DNA of 64,000 nucleotides from an uncultured virus (IMG/VR IMGVR_UViG_3300047157_000146) (taxonomy: Duplodnaviria; Heunggongvirae; Uroviricota; Caudoviricetes), in the IMG/VR virus record IMGVR_UViG_3300047157_000146; one strand, given 5' to 3'. Positions 2,904-60,595 of this stretch are shown piece after piece. Both the position numbers and the translations under genes were made by a program. A model generated the notes under the pieces. It saw only the letters and a list, made by a program, of their open reading frames with translations, was not told the DNA's origin and ran no database searches. Each line of letters opens with the position of its first letter. The stretch's first letter is position 1.

Positions 2904-3567
2904 ATGAGAAGAAAGAGTTGTGCCTTTTGTCAACACAGTGATGTTGATTCCATGGAGGCCGACTTAGAATCCCTTACTATTACTCCCGATGAATTAGATG
3001 CAAGGAACAACTGGAGAAGCGGAACTGCGGCCCAACATCAAAGAAATCACATGGGAGAATATGTGCAACAGCAGTAATCCAAAGTGTGCAAGTTATGTGT
3101 AGACCCAATGAGGGAAGACACTATGAGAAGGCAATTACAAGGGTAATATCACAAGTGAGGTCATTTCTTCCGCTTGGACCTCTCTAAAACACAGGTGCAA
3201 CGCCACATGTTAAGCACCACTTTACAGCCCATTGGTACAGCAATCTGCGGCGGCTATGATAGCGAAAAAGGAAGTAAATGAGGTTGATTTGCTATCAAAT
3301 AACATTCAATTGCTAGATGATAAATTCACCGAGACTTGTTCATTAGATATGATTTAGATGCTAAGAGAGATTGATAGTCTTACTAAGTTCGCAAGAGAAG
3401 TTCGGGAGTCTTTGAAAGTACCTGATGGAGTTCAAAGGAAAACTTGTCCACAAGCGACAAGATACAATTATTGTCGCACAGATGCAGGTTGTTCAAGAAG
3501 TGTTAGCACAGAACAATCCGGAGATTTGGCTTGATATTAAAAGAAAATGCAGGAGAGATTACAATGA
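2904..3567 (+). CDS. Frameshifted CxxC/HTH-containing protein, possibly terminase small subunit (indels probably assembly errors)
   Basis: Starts MRRKSCAFCQH; continues across frames (SALDLSKTQVQRH; KGKLVHKRQDTIIVAQMQVVQEVLAQNNPEIWLDIK) and ends KMQERLQ*. TerS call is weak, from position and HTH-like character only. Confidence 0.4.
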
Positions 3568-3929
3568 GTTGGAAAAAAATAGTTAAAAGAAAAAGCAAAA
3601 AACTTAATGTCGAAGATAGTAATATTTTTAATAAGTTTGTAAAAGACTTAACAGATGGTTTAATTGATAGAGAATTACAAGACCATTTAAGCAGAACAAC
3701 TTCCGACGACCCGCAATATAAAAATCACGAAATTGCTCTCAAAGAAGTTTTGTATGATGATTTATCTGACAATATTGCAGACAGATTAGCAGACGCTATT
3801 GAAACAGTAGTTTTCAAAGAAGGAAGAATAGATTATGATGATAATGCCTCATCATCGGGCATACTCGTTTTAATTGAAGCAATAGATAAAAATGAGAAAG
3901 AATTAGAATCTAAAAATTTAGAATGGTGA
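3564..3929 (+). CDS. Cassette 1, hypothetical (MSWKKIVK leader)
   Basis: ATG inside repeat copy 1. Confidence 0.7.
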   Translation: MSWKKIVKRKSKKLNVEDSNIFNKFVKDLTDGLIDRELQDHLSRTTSDDPQYKNHEIALKEVLYDDLSDNIADRLADAIETVVFKEGRIDYDDNASSSGILVLIEAIDKNEKELESKNLEW

Positions 3930-3942
3930 AGGAGAGATTACA

Positions 3943-4347
3943 ATGAGTTGGAAAAAAATATTGAAAGCATACAAATTCGGAGAGGACATTCCTTTTATTT
4001 ATGTCATTCCTGCCTTTCCCTTTGAAACAGGCGGAACTTTTGTTGATAAAGCAAAAGACCCTAAATATCAAGAACAGTATGAGTTTCTTAAAGAAACCTT
4101 TAAAATTACAGGAGAAGAAATGCTTGACATTGAAGGTGATTTAATGAGAGTGGCAACATTTGCTTTACACTTTGGAGAAAAGTATAAAGGAACATTTTGT
4201 ATGAAGCATAATTATGGCCCTATTGATACTTGGTATGATTGTGGAAAATGCTTAAAGGAATCTAAGAATGGTGAAAGAGATAGCATAGACTTAGAACACT
4301 CTAGGCTAACGGCTAAACAAGCATTTGATAAGTTTAGAACAAACTAG
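3943..4347 (+). CDS. Cassette 2, hypothetical with Cys cluster (C..CGKC) (MSWKKILK leader)
   Basis: ATG inside repeat copy 2. Confidence 0.7.
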   Translation: MSWKKILKAYKFGEDIPFIYVIPAFPFETGGTFVDKAKDPKYQEQYEFLKETFKITGEEMLDIEGDLMRVATFALHFGEKYKGTFCMKHNYGPIDTWYDCGKCLKESKNGERDSIDLEHSRLTAKQAFDKFRTN

Positions 4348-4358
4348 GAGAGATTACA

Positions 4359-4676
4359 ATGAGTTGGGAAGACATATTGAAAAATGCTTGGTATGTTAGA
4401 GATGGAGATGCCCCTTTGCACGACCATGTTCACGAACTACTTTTCTTTATGGCTTACAATGAAGACCCTAAATTAAAACAAGCAGGTGAGGCTTTATTGA
4501 ATAAATTTGATGAATACTATGAAAGGGTAGAGGATAAAGATAAGTTAAATGACCTTTACTCTCCCGAATTTTTTAGTTTTCAAAGCAACTTAAAGAAACT
4601 CGCAAAGGCAGTTACTTCAAAGATGGGATTAAGAGAACAGTATTTGCATTTGATTGAAGCAAAGAGATTGATGTAG
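4359..4676 (+). CDS. Cassette 3, hypothetical helical protein (MSWEDILK leader)
   Basis: ATG inside repeat copy 3. Confidence 0.7.
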   Translation: MSWEDILKNAWYVRDGDAPLHDHVHELLFFMAYNEDPKLKQAGEALLNKFDEYYERVEDKDKLNDLYSPEFFSFQSNLKKLAKAVTSKMGLREQYLHLIEAKRLM

Positions 4677-4687
4677 GAGAGATTACA

Positions 4688-4936
4688 ATGAGTTGGAAAG
4701 ACCTAGTTAAGGGAGAGAAAGAATACTCATTCTATCTCGGACAAATTGAAAAGATAGAAAAAATGCTAGAAAGACTGTATGAAGATATAGAAAAATCCGC
4801 TATTGAAATGAATAAAAAAACAGGCTTACCAATAGAACAGGCAAGAAACATAATTAAAAATGTGCAAGAAGGCACTATTGATGAAATAGAAAAAACACTT
4901 GAAGAATTTAAACAAAAATTAGAAAGGTCATTCTAG
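4688..4936 (+). CDS. Cassette 4, coiled-coil hypothetical (MSWKDLVK leader)
   Basis: ATG inside repeat copy 4. Confidence 0.7.
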   Translation: MSWKDLVKGEKEYSFYLGQIEKIEKMLERLYEDIEKSAIEMNKKTGLPIEQARNIIKNVQEGTIDEIEKTLEEFKQKLERSF

Positions 4937-4947
4937 GAGAGATTATA

Positions 4948-5208
4948 ATGAGTTGGGAAGATATTATTAAAAGGCCAAGTGAAGAGGAAGTGAGAAGTGA
5001 TGCTCAACGAAACGCAGATGAATTAAACAAGCCCGTTTACTTATTTCAAAGTGCATTAAATAGTCAGTGGTTGTTTTATGACGAGCCGCCTAAAGACAAT
5101 ATTAAATATGAAACAATTTATCCTACTAATCCTACTGTTAGAATAGAAGAGGGTGCAAAATTCTCAGAGGCGTTTCGAGAAACGGAAGGAATGGACACTA
5201 GTAAGTAA
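4948..5208 (+). CDS. Cassette 5, hypothetical (MSWEDIIK leader)
   Basis: ATG inside repeat copy 5. Confidence 0.7.
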   Translation: MSWEDIIKRPSEEEVRSDAQRNADELNKPVYLFQSALNSQWLFYDEPPKDNIKYETIYPTNPTVRIEEGAKFSEAFRETEGMDTSK

Positions 5209-5222
5209 AAGGAGAGGTTACA

Positions 5223-5705
5223 ATTAGTTGGCAAAGTATTTTGAAAGCCCCATATTCTGTTGGTGGAACAGAAACCTCTTTTTTATATCAAGGAAGCCAA
5301 TTAGAAGAAGATACAGGTTATTGGACTCCTTATTATAATCAAGCAGTTGTTTATGCAGTTTATGGTTCAGAAGCAAATATAAAAAAACCCATGAAAAATG
5401 TGGGAAAACCTACCATAAAACAAGCAAAAGAAACTAAAGAAAATATTGATTTGAAAGATGACCCCGAAAAAACAATGGCGGGTATGGGTAAGTTAGATTA
5501 TACTTTAGTTTCCGATAAAGTAGTCAAAGACGCAATAGATGAATTAATTGGAGAATTAGAGTTTATTGGTTACGATGATTTTGAAAGTAATGGAGTTAAT
5601 TATGCTTCACCCGAACAGTTTAATCAAATAATGGAAACTACTGCACAGTTCTATTCAAACGAAGAAAGAATACAACACGCTAAGAAAATGCAGGAGAGAA
5701 TATAA
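5223..5705 (+). CDS. Cassette 6, hypothetical; leader (I)SWQSILK with ATT in place of ATG
   Basis: Repeat copy 6 reads ATT AGT TGG CAA AGT ATT TTG AAA, in frame with ORF 5241..5705. Confidence 0.55.
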   Translation: MSWQSILKAPYSVGGTETSFLYQGSQLEEDTGYWTPYYNQAVVYAVYGSEANIKKPMKNVGKPTIKQAKETKENIDLKDDPEKTMAGMGKLDYTLVSDKVVKDAIDELIGELEFIGYDDFESNGVNYASPEQFNQIMETTAQFYSNEERIQHAKKMQERI

Positions 5706-5866
5706 TGAGTTGGAAAAGTGTTCTCAAAAGACAAACCAAACTCCCTAAAGAACTTACAGAAGGCGCTACCGTATCTACAATTCCAGCAGAAGAGTGGGGA
5801 AATGAACCCAAGAAAACCCCACCGTCGAAGGAAGATGCTACAGCCCGTCAGAAAAAGTTAGATTGA
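5705..5866 (+). CDS. Cassette 7, 53-aa hypothetical (MSWKSVLKRQTKL...), absent from ORF track
   Basis: Hand-translated from ATG in repeat copy 7 to TGA 5864-5866. Confidence 0.6.
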   Translation: MSWKSVLKRQTKLPKELTEGATVSTIPAEEWGNEPKKTPPSKEDATARQKKLD

Positions 5867-15526: not shown

Positions 15527-17174
15527 ATGGCGGAAAAGCGAAGGTTTGGCATTAGTGGATTGTTTAGAAGGTCTACACCTAAGCCAGCAGACCGCAGGGT
15601 GTATAACATTGGGATACAGGAAAGAGAACAGTCGTATATGATGACGGCTCCAATGGTCTACAACATAACTCAACAATCTGTTATTGTCCGTACTTGTATA
15701 ACTCAATTGAAGCAAGAAATTTTCCGAAGAGGCTACATTTGGGAGAAGGCTTACGAGGCTAGATGTAATGCTTGTCAAAAGACTCATCAAAGACCTGTCA
15801 GTGAATGTGCTAGATGTGGCTCTGCTGATTTAGTGAAGCCCGACCCTAAGCAATTAGAATATGCGGAGAAGTTCATTGAAGGATATGTTAACAAGTCCGA
15901 ACAACTATTTATTGATGTTTAAAAGAATTAGAAGACGACCTAAATATTATGGACGATGCTTATATTGTTCTTGTTAAAGAATATTACTTAGATGGTAATG
16001 GTAAAATTCGAATGCACAGAATCAAAGAATTATTCGAGGCGACCCTGTGACTATGTTTATTTACGCTGATGAATTGGGAGTTAGAGGAACTAAAGGATTT
16101 ACTTGTATTAATCATAGAAGCGTATGTTGGCTACAAGAACCACATGAAAATGTACTGACTTGTGGGGGAGTACTTCACCCTGTTCATTATGTCAATAGAG
16201 CAAATGGAGAAGACCAATTCTACATTGAAGGAGAAGTGCTACACTTTAGTAAGTACAGTCCTAGTAGGCTTTATGGACACTCTCCTGTTATGACACTATT
16301 CAATCACATTATGACTCTAATTGCTATGGAAAATTATGTTAATTCTTCTTACACTAAGAGCAGAATGCCTAGAGGTTTGTTAGCAGTTCAAACTAGAAAC
16401 ATGGATTCAATGAGAGCCTTTTGGAGAGGGGTTAAAGAGAAGAATGGAAGCAAGACCCTCACTTTATTCCTGTTATGGGAATAGAAGCCGAAAACGGAAA
16501 GGGTGCAGTTGAATGGATTAAGTTCATGGACAGTCTTAAAGAAATGGAATATACATTTCAGTTAAGGATGATTTAAGAGATAGGATTTCTGCTTTCTATG
16601 GTGTTAGTAAAGTCTTCATGGCTGATAATACTACAAGTGGAGGATTAAACAATGAAGGTATGCAAATTCTTGTGACTAATCGTGCTGTTCAAATGGCACA
16701 AAATGTTTATAATAATTATGTTTTCCCATTCCTAACAAAGCAATTTGGCATAACTGATTGGAATTGAAACTACCTCCATCGGAAGAAGAAGATGAAATTG
16801 CAGGTCTTCGTAAAAGAGAAATAGAAGTTAATATTGCGGCTTCTGTTAAGAACTTAGGATTTGAAGTTGATATGGATGAAGATGGTAATTTTACCTTCAA
16901 TAAGCCGGAGCCTAAAGAGGAGCCTCCTCAAGAAGGAGAAGAGACTAAAGCACAATCCGGTATGGGTGGTTTAGCAGGGTCTAACTTCGACCAAAGAGAT
17001 ATTGATGAGATGAATAGAGAAATGTTAGAGGGAGGAAGTAAGCCTCAAGAGAATCCCGCTACCACAAGAAATAAACCATCCATGAGCGTAGGCCCCGATA
17101 AGCGAATGACTGGATTGCCTACGGATGCTGGAAATCAAAATGTAGATAGAAGAAGTGAAAGGAGAATACCATAA
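15527..17174 (+). CDS. Portal protein with zinc-ribbon insertion(s); broken by several indels (probably assembly errors)
   Basis: Fragments 15527-15922, 16047-16484, 16758-17174; VLHFSKYSPSRLYGHSP, MPRGLL and ISAFYGV segments typical of HK97-type portals; position after TerL. Confidence 0.8.
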
Positions 17175-52649: not shown

Positions 52650-53341
52650 ATTGTCACCTTATCTTCTGTGTTTAGGACTTCGAGTACTCTTTCAGCAAGG
52701 GTAAGTCCAAATCCCTCTACTGCTTTTATTTCGGATAGTTTAGCATAGGATATTTCAATAACAGAACCAAATTTCTTCAAAAGGGCTTTGGCTTTCTTTA
52801 CTGAAATTCCTTTAATTGAAGTCAGTACATCAACTCTCATATCATCAGTTGCTATCCTCTTTATCAACTGAGGATTCAATGAGGGTCTTTCTATCGGCTT
52901 CATCTTACAAATAGTTGTAATTATTAAAGAGGCTTCTATTTCACTAGGAACCCAAAAGGCTCTAGTGTCTGTATCTAAGGTAATTCTACCTATGGCTCCT
53001 AAGAATCTTCTTCTTAGGTTATGTTTGCTAAAAACGAAGTTAGTTTTCTTAGAGTTATCTACTAGAGATTGAATATCTTTTTCTAAATCACCATAGATAA
53101 TTACTATGTTGTGTTTGTAATGTCGGTCCATGTTGTCTATTTGAGTCCAAATTCTTTTGTTTAGAATTGACTGAATAAAGTCAAGACAAGACTTTGCTTC
53201 AAAACAAACATCGTCAAAAACATAGTCTCCTACTTCTATCCACTTCTTCTCATTTGGTATTCCTAGGGAATCTGCTTTTTTGATAACTAAATCAACTAAC
53301 TTAGAGCCTTTTCTTTCCCGACTATCTATAGTCAACATCAT
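52646..53341 (-). CDS. ERCC4/XPF-family nuclease with HhH motifs
   Basis: IDSRE, GDYV, FEAKS, IKGIS and VEGFG HhH motifs. Confidence 0.85.
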   Translation of the reverse strand: MMLTIDSRERKGSKLVDLVIKKADSLGIPNEKKWIEVGDYVFDDVCFEAKSCLDFIQSILNKRIWTQIDNMDRHYKHNIVIIYGDLEKDIQSLVDNSKKTNFVFSKHNLRRRFLGAIGRITLDTDTRAFWVPSEIEASLIITTICKMKPIERPSLNPQLIKRIATDDMRVDVLTSIKGISVKKAKALLKKFGSVIEISYAKLSEIKAVEGFGLTLAERVLEVLNTEDKVTI

Positions 53342-53718
53342 TCCAACTCCAACTTTTGTTGCTTGGAGTCTTGGTTTATAGATGTGGTGAGAACTTTTGT
53401 TTCTTTGTCAGTATAACCCCATACATAATCTATGAAATCGAAGAGCAACCAATCGGGCCACTCTTTAGGATATTGATTTCCTTCATCATTCCATCTCTTA
53501 GGGGAGAACCCAAAAGTCCCCATTATCTTATTTTCAAATCTCCAAAAGACTTGTCTTCCTTCCATTCTAACTTCCCATTTCCAAGCGGATAAAATAACAG
53601 GGGCGGGGTCTTCTTGTTCTCCTTCATCATAATAAGAAGGGCCATATATCATTTGATTCCATTTTGTTTCTTCGTATTTCATTTCTTTTCCTCCAAATAG
53701 TCGGGGTATCTCCAACAT
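53338..53718 (-). CDS. Hypothetical Trp-rich protein
   Basis: ORF; true start probably MKYEET. Confidence 0.45.
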   Translation of the reverse strand: MLEIPRLFGGKEMKYEETKWNQMIYGPSYYDEGEQEDPAPVILSAWKWEVRMEGRQVFWRFENKIMGTFGFSPKRWNDEGNQYPKEWPDWLLFDFIDYVWGYTDKETKVLTTSINQDSKQQKLELE

Positions 53719-55110: not shown

Positions 55111-56028
55111 TCATAGCCACCCGCTATCTTGTGCCGCATCACAAAGTCCAAAGAAGGAACAGTGTGTGCAAGTCTTGTAGTAAAACTTAGTCTCAAATAT
55201 TTTTTGCTCGTAAGCGTGAATCAACTTAGCAATGTTTTTCATAACTCCATTTACATTATTCACACGGTATCTGCTAGTAGCGTCTTCGCAGTGGAAATGA
55301 TTAGAGATTGGATAATACCAAGCCCAATGACTAACAGGAATATTGGGTTCCAATCCAGCCTGTTTCAAAACCAAATCGCTAGAGTTCTCAATTAGAATTT
55401 TGTAAAATGCCATTTCTTTTCTCATAGAAGTTGCTTTGTAGTCTTTCCAAGGTCCAGTCTTAAATTCCATAGGAATGTAACCATTACCTTCTTTGAAAAT
55501 CCTATCAATAATTCCTTGGAGATGCACAACATAATCTCTACTAAGAGGGTAGTCGGGGTTTTGGTCAGCACGAATTACTATTTCGCAATCAAACTTACCT
55601 TCATTACAAGCAGGTAAAAACTCGTCTAATTTTTCATCACTTCTAGCATCGACAAATCGTTGTGCTTCAAAAGCAATAATGGTTTGGTAGTCGTCCGAGT
55701 AATCATCTAGTGGAAATAAGGTTGAGCAATAGTCAACAACTTCACTATGGGTCATATCTTCTGCCTTTTTAATGTCAAAGTCATTAAAGAAATCTTCTCT
55801 AGCATTGTGCATGATAGTTCCTTTACGCATGGCTTCTGTTTGGTCTTGCGGTAGCCTCTTAACATAACTGAACTCATACTTCTTTGGACACCAATCGAAG
55901 GTTCCGAGAGAAGACTTGCTTATCTTCAATATAGGTTCTGTAGGGTCGTCTGTGTTTTCCGGCATAAACTTGTAAGTGTAGTCTGCCATCGCTTCTATTT
56001 CTATTTCATAATCTGTTTTATCGGTCAT
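55111..56028 (-). CDS. Cas4-like PD-(D/E)XK exonuclease with Fe-S cysteines
   Basis: WCPKK, GIIDRI, EFKTG, CTHCSFFGLC. Confidence 0.85.
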   Translation of the reverse strand: MTDKTDYEIEIEAMADYTYKFMPENTDDPTEPILKISKSSLGTFDWCPKKYEFSYVKRLPQDQTEAMRKGTIMHNAREDFFNDFDIKKAEDMTHSEVVDYCSTLFPLDDYSDDYQTIIAFEAQRFVDARSDEKLDEFLPACNEGKFDCEIVIRADQNPDYPLSRDYVVHLQGIIDRIFKEGNGYIPMEFKTGPWKDYKATSMRKEMAFYKILIENSSDLVLKQAGLEPNIPVSHWAWYYPISNHFHCEDATSRYRVNNVNGVMKNIAKLIHAYEQKIFETKFYYKTCTHCSFFGLCDAAQDSGWL

Positions 56029-56030
56029 AA

Positions 56031-56915
56031 TTACCACCATTCATCGAATTTTCTTTGCTGTGTTTTTATTTTTTTAGTGTCCCAACCCATAGCATCGAAA
56101 ATGGGCTGGACTTTACTCACTACTTGTTCGGCGTAGTGGGGCCAATCTGGTTCAAAACCCTCTATCTCGGAAAAAGTATTTCCGGAAACATAAGTTGCTT
56201 CCTTACGAACACCGCTTAGTGGGTCAGTAAAGAAACCTCTTGGTCTTATTCTTAGGAAGACATAAGAATCTTCAAAGGTAATATTTCTTTCTTGCATAGA
56301 GTACAACACCCCTACAATACCTTCGCTAATTGTTGGCTTCTTCCCTTTGGTTGTTAAGAAAGTAGATGGATGCTTGGCGCATTTGCTACAATAGAACTCA
56401 CCATCAGTCCAAGAAATTTCCCTAATGTCGTACTTCTTATTACAGGTACACTTTACTTGGAATCTTTCTTTCTTTAGTCTAGTTCTTTTTGCTACTTCTC
56501 GGAAATCAATTTCCCCACTCAGTACTTTGACATAAGAAGACTTAGCATATTCGACTATTTCTTGCTCCGATTTTCCGGAAACCCACATATTTAGGGCTAC
56601 TGTTTGAACTTCTTTTGCCATTACTGTCTCGGAAATTCTCTTAGAAGTAAATCCTGTTAGGGTAAATTTAGGTTCCTCTAACCAAACTCCATCTTCCCAA
56701 GAAATCAATCCGGCATTTCTATTCTTTGTGATTCCTACGCCTAATGATTCAAAGTATTTCTCAAATTCTAGAATAACAGGGTGTTCTTCTAGACCTAGTA
56801 AATTAGGAAAGATAGTTCTAACTTCTTCATTTATTTTTTCAAGAGATGAAAAAGCCGACTCTATAGAATCTACCTTGACATAGATTGAGTCTGTGTGTCC
56901 ATAAACTACTTCCAT
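56031..56915 (-). CDS. polB: Family B DNA polymerase, C-terminal part of split gene
   Basis: Motif C YGHTDS, LEFEK, KNRNAG, C-terminal PIP-like QRKFDEWW. Confidence 0.85.
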   Translation of the reverse strand: MEVVYGHTDSIYVKVDSIESAFSSLEKINEEVRTIFPNLLGLEEHPVILEFEKYFESLGVGITKNRNAGLISWEDGVWLEEPKFTLTGFTSKRISETVMAKEVQTVALNMWVSGKSEQEIVEYAKSSYVKVLSGEIDFREVAKRTRLKKERFQVKCTCNKKYDIREISWTDGEFYCSKCAKHPSTFLTTKGKKPTISEGIVGVLYSMQERNITFEDSYVFLRIRPRGFFTDPLSGVRKEATYVSGNTFSEIEGFEPDWPHYAEQVVSKVQPIFDAMGWDTKKIKTQQRKFDEWW

Positions 56916-56916
56916 A

Positions 56917-57988
56917 TCATTCACTTCCGAAAACATTTTCCCAACTAAAACTTTCATTGTTTTGCTTGGAAGTTTTTATAGCCCATTTAACATCATAATA
57001 GCACTTATCAAGATACCAAATAAGAGTCACTAGCCAAATGAACATCAGTGCAAATACTAGAAGAGTTAGAATCAAAGTACCACCACTAATAAGGTGACGA
57101 TAGTAGCAATGTTGACAATGTTGACCATCATCAAAATCTTATTGCTTCTCTTGACATTAGCCAGTAGTTCGCTGAGTGTTCCGTTTGTTGTTTTTTGTAC
57201 TTCTATCAATTCATCTAAATTAAACATTTTTCATTCCTCTTCTATTTTTATTCACTACAGTTGACCTGTAGTGTTTTACATAGCACGCAAAGCAGTATTT
57301 TTTAGAAGGATGAGTAGTCCTAACTAATTTTCTACATCTAGTGCATCTATTCATTTACTACCACCTTTGATAGTTCTAGGGCGATAATTCCCACTATTTT
57401 AATCATTCTTCTTCACCTGTAATTTCCTTAATGATTCTTTCTGCTTCACATAACTTACAGTGATATTTGCTTTGAAACTCCGGTCTATGTATCATTGGTT
57501 TTACGCACTTCATCTTTCCATCACCCTTCTAATATCGAATGTCTTCTTTTCTAAGAATAAGTAATTTGTGCAAAGGACTAGTAATGGCATCCGGCAGACT
57601 TTTTTGCCATCTATTTCAATCTCTATAATATCTCTTTCTACTTTATCTTTAGAAGAGTCTGTGGTAATGTAATAGTGTATGTAGTCGTAATCTTCTAATT
57701 CTTCATGTAAAAGAAAATAGTCGGAATCTTCATTCATTGTATAGTGGTTCATCCTTCCATCTCCTTTACTATCCATGCCAACACACCATAAACAGGATTA
57801 GCACCATAAACACACCAACCAAAATTACTTCTATCATTTTTAGTTTCGTACGCAGACATTTCTTCTGCACTCCAACGATATAAACATGGTCTGTAAAAAG
57901 GAATATCGCCTGTTTTTTCTTCGGCTTCTAGTAATACAATTTTTCCTAAGCCTTCATGTGGTGGTAATTTACTTAATTGTGAACTCAT
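56917..57988 (-). other. Cluster of about seven tightly coupled small ORFs between the polB halves
   Basis: 57749-57988, 57510-57752, 57403-57513 (CxxC), a 19-codon ORF, 57220-57354 (two CxxC), 57072-57227 (TM), 56917-57075 (TM); partly hand-translated. Confidence 0.6.
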
Positions 57989-58000
57989 CCTTCCATCTCC
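57510..58000 (-). repeat. 16-bp junction repeat GGAGATGGAAGGATGA (57985-58000, 57749-57764 exact; 57510-57525 with 2 mismatches)
   Basis: Copy 1 is the 3' end of polB-N; each copy holds RBS and overlapping ATGA. Confidence 0.85.
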
Positions 58001-59757
58001 CTTGCTGTAAATGCGGCCTTACGAATAGCCTCTCTTGCACTAGCAGTAATGCTAGCGGCTAGGTCTACATTCGCCCAACCGAATCCCTTGAAGGCAAGGA
58101 TACCATAGAAGGAAGCCATCAAACGCTTTACAGCCATTTGGTTGTTGTTCCACTTAACGACAGCCTCCTTATCTCCAGCCTTCCTAGCCTCCTTCATGTA
58201 CTTCTTGTACTCGCCTCTCAACTCTTTCAAGTCGATAAGGGAGCGAGGCAATAATCCCAATTTGTCAGTCTTGAAATAACGCATATCTTTCTCGTAGTCT
58301 TCTGCTACAGGTTGTAGATTCTGTGGAGTATTCAAGTCAGCACTGAATAGCGTTGGCTCTTCTGTAAGAGTTTCAAACGAGATATTCCTAGCAATAATCA
58401 TACTAGGATAAAGACCAGCAAAATCAAAGGCGGCTACATTATAATGCAATCCGTTAGTACCTTCGTCAGTAGGATTGTAAATCATAGCACCCGAATAAGA
58501 TAGGCTTGCTCCGCACTTCTTACACTCTCTTAGTGTCTTCTCGTTTGGATTCTTATGACTACACTTATCGCAGACTTTGAACTTAGGCTTCTCTCCAGTT
58601 GGGGCTTTCCACCAAGCGTTTCTCATAAAGTAGATTGAACCCATGTTAGAAGCAAAGAAGCAAGCATCGAAAGGAGCAATTAGTAATCGCTGTAAAGAAA
58701 GAATGGCTTCACTACAGAAGTTAGTTTCATCAATCTTTACTAGCAGTTCTACATCTATCAAAGCATACTTCAAGTAGGCTTGAGTGTCTTCTAGCCAGCC
58801 TCTACGATAAAACTCGTTAGCATCTTCAAATTTAGTTTCCTTAGATTTACCTTCACCGAATAATGCAGTAGAAACATAATCTAGAGATAGGCTAGGTAGT
58901 GTGCCTTTCTGTGCATCATTCCACTGTCTTTCAAAAGCCATATCTAAGTTTAGGGTAATTCTACCTCGGATAGGTTGAGCAGTAGCATGATAGCCATTCT
59001 CCTCTTTCGTAAATCTTACCTTACCATCCTTGACCTTTATTCCATCAACAACTCCTAATGGAGAAATAATGCTAGGGTCAATATCGTAAAAGGCACATCT
59101 AGAAAACAACTTAGGAAGGTCAGCCCAATTACCAAACCATGCAATTAACATGTCGGGGTCTTTAACCATCATAGTTCCCATAAAGTTTTCAAGCATGTCT
59201 TTTTCAGTATCAAATACTCTTAATGTTGAGTCAGTTCTTCTTTTTTTATTTTCAAAAAGTTTATCATGTGATAAAATTAATTTATGCTCATTCATTCTTT
59301 TAGGAAACCATACCCATTGGTAGTAGTCCTCATCGTAATTATCATACATTACAATAGTAGTAATCTTATCGTGGTGTTCTCCACCTTGTTGCCATTCCAT
59401 ATCCCAATACCACTTACGCATATCGTACTCTTTGATTTCTTCTAATCGGTCTACACAATATCTGTAGGTGTAAGGCACATCAGCCTCGTAAGTTCTAGAA
59501 AAGGTATTCTTCAAATTCCTCAAGTCTTCCGGCATTTCTGCATAGACTTTCTTCAATCGAGTACCTTCGAGATTAACCCAATCGCCTCTCTCGTATTCTA
59601 TTTCCCTAGTAATGTACTTACTAGGCTGGTAAGTAGGTGGTTCCTTACTAGTCTCTTCCACAAAAAAGTATGGGCGAAACGGAATAGTAGAACTGTGCTT
59701 AGTACCATCTTCTCTCCACGATAAATAAATATTTGAATTGTTATGTGAGATTATCAT
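57985..59757 (-). CDS. polB: Family B DNA polymerase, N-terminal part (exonuclease plus motifs A and B)
   Basis: ExoI WDME, ExoIII YALID, motif A DFAGLYPS, motif B KRLMASFYG. Confidence 0.9.
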   Translation of the reverse strand: MIISHNNSNIYLSWREDGTKHSSTIPFRPYFFVEETSKEPPTYQPSKYITREIEYERGDWVNLEGTRLKKVYAEMPEDLRNLKNTFSRTYEADVPYTYRYCVDRLEEIKEYDMRKWYWDMEWQQGGEHHDKITTIVMYDNYDEDYYQWVWFPKRMNEHKLILSHDKLFENKKRRTDSTLRVFDTEKDMLENFMGTMMVKDPDMLIAWFGNWADLPKLFSRCAFYDIDPSIISPLGVVDGIKVKDGKVRFTKEENGYHATAQPIRGRITLNLDMAFERQWNDAQKGTLPSLSLDYVSTALFGEGKSKETKFEDANEFYRRGWLEDTQAYLKYALIDVELLVKIDETNFCSEAILSLQRLLIAPFDACFFASNMGSIYFMRNAWWKAPTGEKPKFKVCDKCSHKNPNEKTLRECKKCGASLSYSGAMIYNPTDEGTNGLHYNVAAFDFAGLYPSMIIARNISFETLTEEPTLFSADLNTPQNLQPVAEDYEKDMRYFKTDKLGLLPRSLIDLKELRGEYKKYMKEARKAGDKEAVVKWNNNQMAVKRLMASFYGILAFKGFGWANVDLAASITASAREAIRKAAFTAREMEG

Positions 59758-59761
59758 TTAA

Positions 59762-60595
59762 TCACTCTTCTAGTCTTGGCGTTTTAATCAATAGGCGGTC
59801 TTCTCCCACCAAAAACAATGGGAAAGCATCTTTCAAATAGAACTCAATAGTTCCGCTTTTGAAGAATTTATGGATAGGTCCACTGAAAAGAACAGTGGCA
59901 GACTGTCCTGTTGAGTGTAGTAATTCTTCTGTGGTTAATTCATGTGAGTAAGACTTTCGGCCTCTATCAGTAGATGAAAAACGAACAGAAGAAGATTCTA
60001 ATGTAGGTGTATCGGAAACAGCCTTGAAGTCTATTTCATAGATTCCTGTACCCACTAACTCGCAGAACTCCATTGTCCTAGAGAACACCGTAGCGTCTAT
60101 AGATATGTGGCCTTCGTATTGTGTAGTGTTAAAGTATGGCATTCCTTCTTCTACGATTAGACGATTCATTGCAGACACTCTATGGATTACATCTAAACTA
60201 GGGTGAGCCTGTACTGTGTTTAGAGTAAATTGGTTAGCACTAGTGTCTGTAATTGTTAATCTAGTGCCACCTTCGATAGTAATCTGTCCCTTGAATTTCT
60301 TTAAGATTGGAATTATTTCCGATATTCTTAGCGTTGCATTGACGCCCAAATCCTTAGTCTGTGTCCAAACTGTATTTGCTTCTTCTTGAGAAACTTCAAC
60401 TAGAGGAATAGAAACTCTAAGAATGAAACCTGCATCGGCATTCCAAACTTCTAACGAATCATTTAGTTGCACCAAGAAAGTAAAGTCCCCAATACTATCG
60501 CCCTTAAGGCCACTAGCAACGGAGTACTTTCCAGCACCCTTCACACTTGTAATTGCATCTAGAAGTTCCTTTGATTCAACTCTAAGTTGCATCAA
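59762..60595 (-). CDS. Putative PCNA-like sliding clamp
   Basis: Size (277 aa), two-domain alpha/beta pattern, ends LLIKTPR, between clamp loader and polB; no diagnostic motif. Confidence 0.55.
   Translation of the reverse strand: MMQLRVESKELLDAITSVKGAGKYSVASGLKGDSIGDFTFLVQLNDSLEVWNADAGFILRVSIPLVEVSQEEANTVWTQTKDLGVNATLRISEIIPILKKFKGQITIEGGTRLTITDTSANQFTLNTVQAHPSLDVIHRVSAMNRLIVEEGMPYFNTTQYEGHISIDATVFSRTMEFCELVGTGIYEIDFKAVSDTPTLESSSVRFSSTDRGRKSYSHELTTEELLHSTGQSATVLFSGPIHKFFKSGTIEFYLKDAFPLFLVGEDRLLIKTPRLEE

Follow-up and report, generated by a model that had tools for sequence, protein, structure and literature searches.

Duplicated translation-initiation junctions around optional small genes between the two halves of the family-B DNA polymerase gene in an uncultured virus resembling group B magroviruses

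Linker- and PeSL-type modular shuffling is the nearest known kind of process to the one described here. According to the passages devoted to them in Arbiol et al. (2010; PMC2839356), the PeSL cassettes of T4-type phages combine an early promoter with a stem-loop terminator, are alike genome-wide and transcriptionally insulating, and have been shown to give mini-circles. The modular theory of Botstein and Campbell, as summarised in the same passages, holds that short conserved linkers at module boundaries allow divergent modules to be exchanged with correct placement and regulation. Genes split by inserts are also known from relatives of phage T4, for which the review of Edgell et al. (2010; PMC2988022) gives, where it deals with such genes, gene 43 of Aeromonas phages 25 and 44RR and nrdA of Aeh1. 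Finally, a polymerase split has been reported for group B magroviruses, with the region between the two halves marked (Philosof et al., 2017; PMC5434244, in its passages on the split). Here we analyse a stretch of 64,000 nucleotides from an uncultured virus of the Caudoviricetes (IMG/VR record IMGVR_UViG_3300047157_000146), called the window below, in which the gene of a family-B DNA polymerase (polB) is divided into polB-N and polB-C by a gap filled with small open reading frames (ORFs). We lean, with somewhat better than even confidence, towards reading this region as a hyperplastic gap whose optional ORFs are shuffled by short-homology recombination at duplicated translation-initiation junctions.

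Like PeSL cassettes, as the cited passages present them, the region carries optional ORFs of unknown function in a hyperplastic region, flanked by copies of a short regulatory motif that leave each cassette ready for expression; the motif sits at the borders of the indels and replacements that distinguish close relatives, no dedicated integrase is known, and the phage's own recombination is invoked. Unlike the PeSL motif, the motif here is a translation-initiation junction that lies partly inside the upstream coding sequence and has no stem-loop (promoters were not scanned); moreover, it varies by locus and in several cases equals the local upstream 3' end. The mini-circles of PeSL cassettes have no counterpart here in the assembled contigs of four public runs, a form of data that drops rare forms.

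The preliminary description of this stretch, made by a model from the letters alone, held that polB-N and the next ORF end in the same 16 bp, that the following ORF (ending RVMER) repeats them with two mismatches, that later junctions lack them, and that the repeat is the 3' end of the upstream core gene together with a ribosome-binding site and ATGA. Each of these points was confirmed. The first two junctions, J1 and J2, both read exactly GGAGATGGAAGGATGA, the third, J3, reads GGTGATGGAAAGATGA, and the fourth, formed by the tail of ORF36, reads ACAGGTGAAGAAGAATGA and is, as are the later ones, unlike J1 to J3. At all three junctions the TGA that closes one ORF overlaps the ATG that opens the next, behind a spacer and a core resembling a Shine-Dalgarno (SD) sequence. 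The likeness of J1 and J2 reaches beyond the 16-mer, since the region around J1 (57985-58014) matches that of J2 over 30 nt at 83% identity (repeat family D11).

A pattern search for the 16-mer with up to three mismatches returned seven matches in the window where 0.59 were expected, and none of 100 shuffles reached seven. When the 3' ends of the 90 chained ORFs of the window were compared in all 4005 pairs, the pair polB-N/ORF79 came first (19 of 21 positions identical, with an exact run of 16); the best three pairs all fell inside the triad of polB-N, ORF79 and ORF80, and the best unrelated pair reached 16/21. For the three junctions, RNA folding did not surpass that of shuffles (z = +1.67, +1.17 and +0.10), and no stem-loop was found in them. 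An artefact of assembly is unlikely because the repeat is only 16 nt long and because contigs of other public runs span both J1 and J2 (record 10 of run X3 covers 57403-58300, record 5 of run X12 covers 57619-58300). Neither a joint that skips ORF79 nor a back-joint from J2 to J1 occurs in the contigs of X3, X5, X9 and X12, four of 24 public runs that are all available as contigs; such contigs drop rare forms. The sole joint among them is in one X5 contig, which skips 56949-57071. Contigs of these four runs also leave the match to the window at 56878, 56915, 57071, 57403 and 57517, all at gene junctions or close to them, and run on into different sequence, which suggests that variants in the population differ by one cassette at a time. 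The minus strand has two more near-matches to the 16-mer, at 53335-53350 and 53483-53498, reading GGAGTTGGAATGATGT (at the junction between a 126-aa ORF and an ERCC4 nuclease) and AGAGATGGAATGATGA.

Like tails are also enriched between neighbours across the loci. Counting covered the 64-kb window and the fetched related loci, with genes called from a simple ORF chain, and each unique tail pair was counted once. Matches of at least 17/21 were found in 13 of 1007 adjacent pairs vs 14 of 8990 non-adjacent ones, and exact runs of at least 16 in six adjacent pairs and no non-adjacent pair. The share of pairs at 16/21 or better drops to 0.8% at separation 2 and to about 0-0.5% further out. Requiring an SD core and a start overlapping the stop (NTGA) in both tails left the excess in place: 11/142 adjacent vs 11/1237 non-adjacent pairs reached 17/21 (Fisher p = 2.5e-6, odds ratio 9.4), five of these 11 non-adjacent pairs being at separation 2, and 5/142 vs 1/1237 reached 19/21. 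By reading of the lists, ORFs with polB-N-like tails belong to about nine unrelated BLAST clusters. The constraints of ribosome binding and ATGA thus do not account for the repeats, and chance is excluded as their source by the pattern shuffles, the ranking of the 4005 pairs and the adjacency excess, the last also with SD core and NTGA required.

The content of the gap is highly variable, as was to be expected from the preliminary description. We fetched 63 related loci that hold both polB halves (L-numbers below denote such related loci); the halves are separated in all 63, by 537-2383 nt, and the loci comprise 54 distinct gaps with 276 ORFs in 54 BLAST clusters, few of them widespread and many rare. 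The widespread families are the ORF51 type (C01, 40 loci), the ORF36 type (C03, 19 loci) and the ORF44 type (C04, 14 loci), and homologues of ORF80 are restricted to L094-L096 and L008/L010, where they start at the ATGA methionine. Relatives at 92-93% polB-N identity already differ: L005 has neither ORF79 nor ORF80, L002 has ORF79 only, L008 and L010 have ORF80 only, and the window and L001 have both. In L010 the polB-N tail, ending in GGATGA, is followed at once by ACCACTAT, which is the start of ORF80. Because L010 joins these two directly, the ORF79 indel, a 236-bp unit of ORF79 and a single 16-mer, ends exactly at the 16-nt repeat.

This boundary was not confined to ORF79. All pairs of loci with flanks at least 85% identical were scanned for indels, yielding 59 distinct inserted segments; a scan by exact sliding was blind to mismatched repeats (for ORF79 it gave k = 2), and a maximal-segment score (match +1, mismatch -2) was used instead, with 2836 random placements as the null. 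A boundary repeat scoring at least 12 was found in 14 of the 59 segments vs 0.04% of the random placements, and one scoring at least 10 in 16 of the 59 vs 0.11%. By reading of the list, the 14 high-scoring rows amount to 11 distinct events, all 11 with an SD-like core in the repeat and ten with a repeat that ends 0-7 nt past a start codon. Two repeat-bounded events lie kilobases from polB (L017 at 383 and L004 at 1653), and the repeat-bounded cargo includes the methylase of L018 and the GIY-YIG-like gene of L051.

One such passenger is ORF79. Its family (77-82 aa) comprises 18 homologous clusters, all unnamed marine metagenome sequences without a Pfam family, and occurs also in viruses with an unsplit polB; it is absent from L005, L008 and L010. 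The body from Q4 to V74 is highly conserved, and residues 2-3 and the last three to nine vary with context. For residues identical to those of the window copy, we counted how often the same codon was used, taking the last 300 codons of polB-N for comparison. L081 shares 93% of codons in ORF79 and 94% in polB-N; the corresponding values are 87% and 52% in L083, 90% and 54% in L084, and 60% and 51% in L090. In L093 and L087, whose unsplit polymerases are only about 30-40% identical and offer no polB-N for comparison, ORF79 still shares 79% and 76%. Since these rates exceed those of polB-N in most lineages, ORF79 has in most lineages moved laterally, far more recently than its neighbours diverged. 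ORF79 itself matched no Pfam or PHROG family, its Atlas scores were below 0.9, and its structure gave no PDB match at E <= 0.001, with a good AlphaFold prediction in one of five models (pLDDT 81.5; the others 48-61).

In several contexts the tail of ORF79 follows the place where it sits. It equals the tail of the local upstream gene in the window (16 nt), in L084 (16 nt) and in L107 (18 nt), and the L084 copy mirrors both positions at which the polB-N tail of L084 departs from that of the window. In L093 and L125 the homologue stands behind an unrelated 106-aa gene, ORF106, and both genes end in GCGAGAGGTGAAGAAGAATGA, identical at 21/21 positions. The slot behind ORF106 is taken in L126 by an unrelated ORF of 176 aa (ORF176), which at its own end repeats 16 nt of the ORF106 tail. 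With other cargo, other junctions are duplicated: ACAGGTGAAGAAGAATGA flanks ORF66 in L002/L081, and GGCGTGGAGGTGAAGG[T/C]GTGA flanks the DNA methylase of L018. A series occurs in L093 (86-482), where four copies of GGAGGTGACGGC[G/A]TGA, spaced 122-131 nt apart, separate unrelated ORFs of about 41-44 aa that each end in VEVTA, in a virus with an unsplit polymerase; junctions of the same type, GGAGGTGACGG[C/A]GTGA, bound three extra gap ORFs in L008 (7979-8581). One of these L008 ORFs starts with VSW (GTGAGTTGG), its first codons being as in the MSW starts described at the end of this text.

The preliminary description had gone on to propose that insertion copies whichever gene junction it targets. 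That the signature is not tied to one sequence holds, as seen in L002/L081, L018, L093/L125 and L126; that insertion is what makes the copy is a proposal. The junctions of the polB gap also differ, as had been claimed, from the repeat of an array near 3.5 kb (AGGAGAGATTACAATGAGTTGG), and the signature is separable from the MSW tag found there, for no gap ORF of the window starts with MSW. Both checks suggested with that description gave results in its favour, and neither of the conditions named there as refuting it (matches expected by chance, invariant gene content) held. Overall, the observation on the polB gap is real and its reading was largely borne out, though the signature marks only part of the indels.

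From the sequence the design of a slot can be read directly. Slots are translationally coupled junctions, and an optional ORF has on either side a copy of one unit: an SD core, then 6-8 nt of spacer, then a start codon that overlaps a stop (NTGA). On the left, this copy is the 3' end of the upstream gene. This left copy gives the incoming ORF its SD and start, and the right copy gives it a stop and returns SD and start to the downstream gene; for this reason the cassette is expression-ready and coupling is left unbroken. Comparison of relatives places the breakpoints of gains, losses and swaps at the junction copies. We propose that ORFs would be gained, lost and swapped at these junctions through short-homology recombination or template switching, for which the virus would use its own recombination and replication proteins and no integrase. 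An ORF body could enter a new junction by crossovers at two microhomologies common to all junctions, namely the start/stop overlap (left) and the SD (right), and the target would serve as template for what lies between them. If the two copies recombined later, the ORF would be removed or the copies kept alike. Among the 82 window ORFs scanned against Pfam, none belongs to an integrase, transposase or recombinase family, the window being part of a genome; the virus does encode, beside polB, the two nucleases and the AAA_24-type ATPase named further below.

Several observations weigh against this reading. The step that makes the copy is one that we infer and did not observe; recombination between pre-existing copies, gene conversion that keeps them alike, or selection on the initiation region may also be the origin of the likeness. 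Only about a quarter of the indels show a boundary repeat, 45 of the 59 rows scoring below 12. The unique tail pairs behind the adjacency counts are not phylogenetically independent, and the ORF chain is self-made. In the contexts of L087/L119, L115/L120 and L118, the tails of ORF79 homologues match the upstream tail at only 8-12 of 21 positions. A comparison of 60 unique pairs of inserted-ORF and polB-N tails, own clade against other clades, gave mixed ranks and no overall support for covariation, and the inserted tail of L025 matches the polB-N tail of another clade at 21/21 and its own at 18/21; inserted tails close to the polB-N of other clades would fit cassettes that travel with a junction made elsewhere. 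Finally, L125 and L127, which have flanks 95-99% identical and both junction copies identical at 21/21, differ in the ORF79 body (77%) and in the next small ORF (57%). Because J2 is intact there while the body has diverged by 23%, selection or gene conversion must add to the identity of the copies, so that junction identity cannot simply be read as the age of an insertion. The same pair illustrates the likeness to the linkers of Botstein and Campbell, with modules at 57-77% between identical junctions; unlike those linkers, the ones here are only 16-21 nt long and tandemly duplicated around single small ORFs.

A bolder form of the proposal, which we hold as a tentative possibility, would give viruses of the magrovirus type a recombinase-independent cassette system whose attachment site is the initiation junction of whichever gene pair is targeted. 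Bodies that lack an SD, start and stop of their own would be inserted between two copies of the target junction and form arrays of unrelated small genes, and the process may also have created the polB split; if so, the whole polB gap would be one old insertion flanked by a 9-nt duplication.

Less probable, in our judgement, is that the junctions are borne by the cassettes: the 3' junction of each ORF would have been made once, in some lineage, and the ORF would since have been passed on by homologous recombination in conserved flanks, namely the polB-N 3' end on the left and core gap genes on the right, with no copying of the target at each arrival. The inserted tails of L013, L025, L028 and L083, which match the polB-N of other clades at 19-21/21 and their own at 16-18, speak for it, as do the conservation across clades of the last 120 nt of polB-N (third-position consensus frequency 0.61-0.81) and the recurrence of the VEVTA-type junction in viruses as different as L093, L008 and L018. 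Yet ORF79 has a tail of polB-N type behind polB-N and one of ARGEEE type, identical at 21/21 to the local gene, behind ORF106; the mirroring of both variant polB-N positions in L084 would be left unexplained, and one founding duplication per junction type would still be required.

Turnover by homing endonucleases is a weaker candidate. On this account free-standing endonucleases would target the polB split, repair of the break from co-infecting genomes would drive gain, loss and co-conversion, and the repeats would be by-products of microhomology repair. The first ORF behind polB-N is indeed an HNH endonuclease in L053, a GIY-YIG-like protein in L051 and a protein with a CoiA N-terminal domain in L054, and a seg endonuclease lies in the split gene 43 of Aeromonas phage 25, as the cited review reports in its account of that gene (PMC2988022). 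The T4-related cases described there resemble the present locus in that a family-B polymerase is encoded by two genes, the insert varies between relatives and some inserts include a homing endonuclease. Unlike them, the window's gap holds no endonuclease gene among its six listed small ORFs, which match no nuclease or other family in Pfam or PHROGs (the scan covered these six and did not include the 19-aa micro-ORF that accompanies them), and several of its junctions copy the polB-N tail. The signature is moreover found far from polB and in viruses whose polB is unsplit, and the HNH insertion of L053 has itself just a 9-nt imperfect boundary repeat.

We regard it as quite improbable that the junctions are alike by convergent selection, through a shared optimal initiation region or a common translational regulator and without any copying. 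It is true that every boundary repeat is an initiation region with an SD core, that the AAGGAG of the polB-N tail stays constant between clades at synonymous sites too, that the junction RNA is unstructured (z = +0.1 to +1.7), as expected for efficient initiation, and that J2 is conserved while the ORF79 body diverges in L125/L127. With SD and NTGA present in both tails, however, the adjacency excess is still 9-fold at 17/21 or better and 45-fold at 19/21 or better. Spacers match within a locus and differ freely between clades and junction types, and neighbours have rare variants in common (a TAA form in L045, a TTTGA form in L075, a GG form in the window). Adjacency excess and shared rare variants together argue against convergence as the sole cause.

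Some familiar elements were considered and set aside: a transposable element with target-site duplication, given that ORF79 has only 79 aa, matches no family or structure and is coding from Q4 to V74 (terminal inverted repeats were not specifically searched), and an integron, as no tyrosine-recombinase integrase is found among the 82 scanned ORFs of this part of the genome. Integron arrays are like the L093 array and the 3.5-kb array of the window in that unrelated promoterless ORFs alternate with recurring short sites; unlike in integrons, no integrase was found here, and the site varies between loci and lacks the form of an imperfect inverted repeat. A group I or II intron in the gap finds no support, as Rfam gave no match (E <= 1) across 55500-60000. 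An intein or split intein was likewise rejected, since the polB halves, ending in AREMEG and beginning with MEVVYGHTDS, hold polymerase and exonuclease domains only.

The bearing of these findings goes beyond one locus. A standing question in virus genome evolution is by what route tightly packed, translationally coupled operons take up small genes of unknown function and stay intact. The duplicated initiation junction suggests a simple answer: translation of the incoming ORF and of the gene downstream is preserved, and clean loss of the ORF is possible. Hundreds of public contigs from an abundant group of uncultured marine viruses show the signature. It picks out mobile cargo such as ORF79, a DNA methylase and nucleases, and it provides a searchable rule for cassette slots elsewhere: a single ORF with one and the same stretch of 16-21 nt at its two ends, running up to the start/stop overlap. 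It also bears on how an essential polymerase gene became split and why the split turned into a hot spot. In the literature searched, which covered few subscription journals, we found no prior description of junction duplication around inserted phage ORFs.

Table 1. Features of the polB gap in the window, its junction repeats, and gap cargo with recognisable domains in related loci.
Feature	Sequence	Coordinates	Strand	Length	Description
polB-N	window	57985..59757	-	590 aa	Family-B DNA polymerase: exonuclease, N-terminal and first part of polymerase domain; ends AAFTAREMEG*
ORF79	window	57749..57988	-	79 aa	Function unknown; start in J1, stop in J2; ends AWIVKEMEG*
ORF80	window	57510..57752	-	80 aa	Optional, function unknown; length counted from the ATGA methionine of J2 (MNHYT...); ends DIRRVMER*
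ORF36	window	57403..57513	-		MKCVKP...TGEEE*; small CxxC protein; widespread first core gene after polB-N
Micro-ORF	window	57347..57406	-	19 aa	MIKIVGIIALELSKVVVNE; hydrophobic; start/stop overlaps bridge ORF36 and ORF44; aligns across close relatives
ORF44	window	57220..57354	-		Small protein with two CxxC pairs (zinc-ribbon-like)
ORF51	window	57072..57227	-		Small protein, hydrophobic C-terminus; commonest single gap gene among relatives
ORF52	window	56917..57075	-		Small protein, hydrophobic N-terminus; other sequence in its place in L001, L002 and L010
polB-C	window	56031..56915	-		Remaining polymerase domain; Pfam DNA_pol_B positions 219-354/453; mechanical ORF reaches 56957
J1	window	57985-58000	-	16 nt	GGAGATGGAAGGATGA; polB-N 3' end: SD-like GGAG, 8-nt spacer, ORF79 ATG, overlapping polB-N TGA
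J2	window	57749-57764	-	16 nt	GGAGATGGAAGGATGA; identical to J1; ORF79 stop and ORF80 start
J3	window	57510-57525	-	16 nt	GGTGATGGAAAGATGA; two mismatches vs J1/J2; ORF80 stop and ORF36 start
Gap cargo	L018	8466-9242			N6/N4 DNA methylase
Gap cargo	L053	4411-5142			HNH endonuclease (PF01844, E = 1.4e-6); directly after polB-N
Gap cargo	L051	7654-8241			GIY-YIG-like MUG113/T5orf172 protein; directly after polB-N
Gap cargo	L054	2835-3725			Protein with CoiA N-terminal domain; directly after polB-N

Between 50 and 64 kb of the window every gene lies on the minus strand (Table 1). The profile matches of polB-N are to Pfam DNA_pol_B (positions 41-196 of 453), DNA_pol_B_exo1 and PHROG 262 (positions 17-554 of 856), so that the split falls between positions 196 and 219 of the DNA_pol_B profile, just ahead of YGHTDS. 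From the relatives and the reading frame, polB-C most likely starts with MEVVYGHTDS at 56915. For ORF80 the mechanical list gives 88 aa (57510..57776), but its most likely start is the ATGA methionine at 57752, as in L008 and L010, the start at 57776 being unlikely. ORF36 stands directly behind polB-N in L005 and L018.

The two edges of the polB gap resemble one another. The last three sense codons of polB-N (window 57988-57996) and the first three of polB-C (56907-56915) have the consensus ATG-RAA-GTA in relatives, and the two sets of codons are identical at eight or more of nine positions in 17 of 49 distinct pairs. This likeness may have been left by a duplication when the split arose. In the alignment, the stretch that runs from the conserved REA as far as YGHTDS counts 20 residues in the split form vs 19 in two unsplit homologues; because the split form thus has one surplus residue only, a duplication of three codons is not directly supported.

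By its gene content the window resembles a group B magrovirus, a name given here from that content and the polB split only. It encodes the gene set of a head-tailed virus (terminase, S78 prohead protease, SU10-type capsid protein and tail tube protein) and an archaeal-type replication module with an ATP-dependent DNA ligase, an RFC-type clamp loader, an ERCC4/HhH nuclease and a PD-(D/E)XK nuclease, the two nucleases and an AAA_24-type ATPase adjoining polB. Group B magroviruses, assigned to Marine Group II archaea, are described with this gene set and a split polymerase (Philosof et al., 2017; PMC5434244, in the passages concerned), and they are alike in being head-tailed, in the archaeal type of the replication module and in a family-B polymerase split within its catalytic domain. 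The split itself was thus already known; the variable gap ORFs and the junction repeats are not described in the main-text passages of that paper that treat it. The region 55900-59800 has no DNA match among GenBank phages, and 560 stretches in IMG/VR encode relatives of polB-N.

Minor observations concern other parts of the window. A 145-aa ORF at 16047-16484 (plus strand) weakly matches the middle of the Phage_portal profile (27.6 bits against a cut-off of 39.1; positions 107-188 of 321), and none of the large ORFs nearby gave a full portal match; the gene for the portal may be fragmented or divergent. In the array at 3541-5740 (plus strand), six copies of AGGAGAGATTACAATGAGTTGG lie between ORFs that all start with MSW(K/E); between the first copy and the last the shared stretch is longer, AAGAAAATGCAGGAGAGA, and one copy, at about 5225, has ATT in place of the ATG start. 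Many genes of the structural half, also on the plus strand, start with M(S/T)W(K/E/Q)(D/E)I(L/I)K behind a similar ribosome-binding site (families D2-D5 and D20), and starts of the M(S/T)W type occur at 1594, 1859, 2113, 10311, 13817, 14302, 15095, 27908 and 32599 (plus strand). Such a start may represent an N-terminal tag common to otherwise unrelated proteins.

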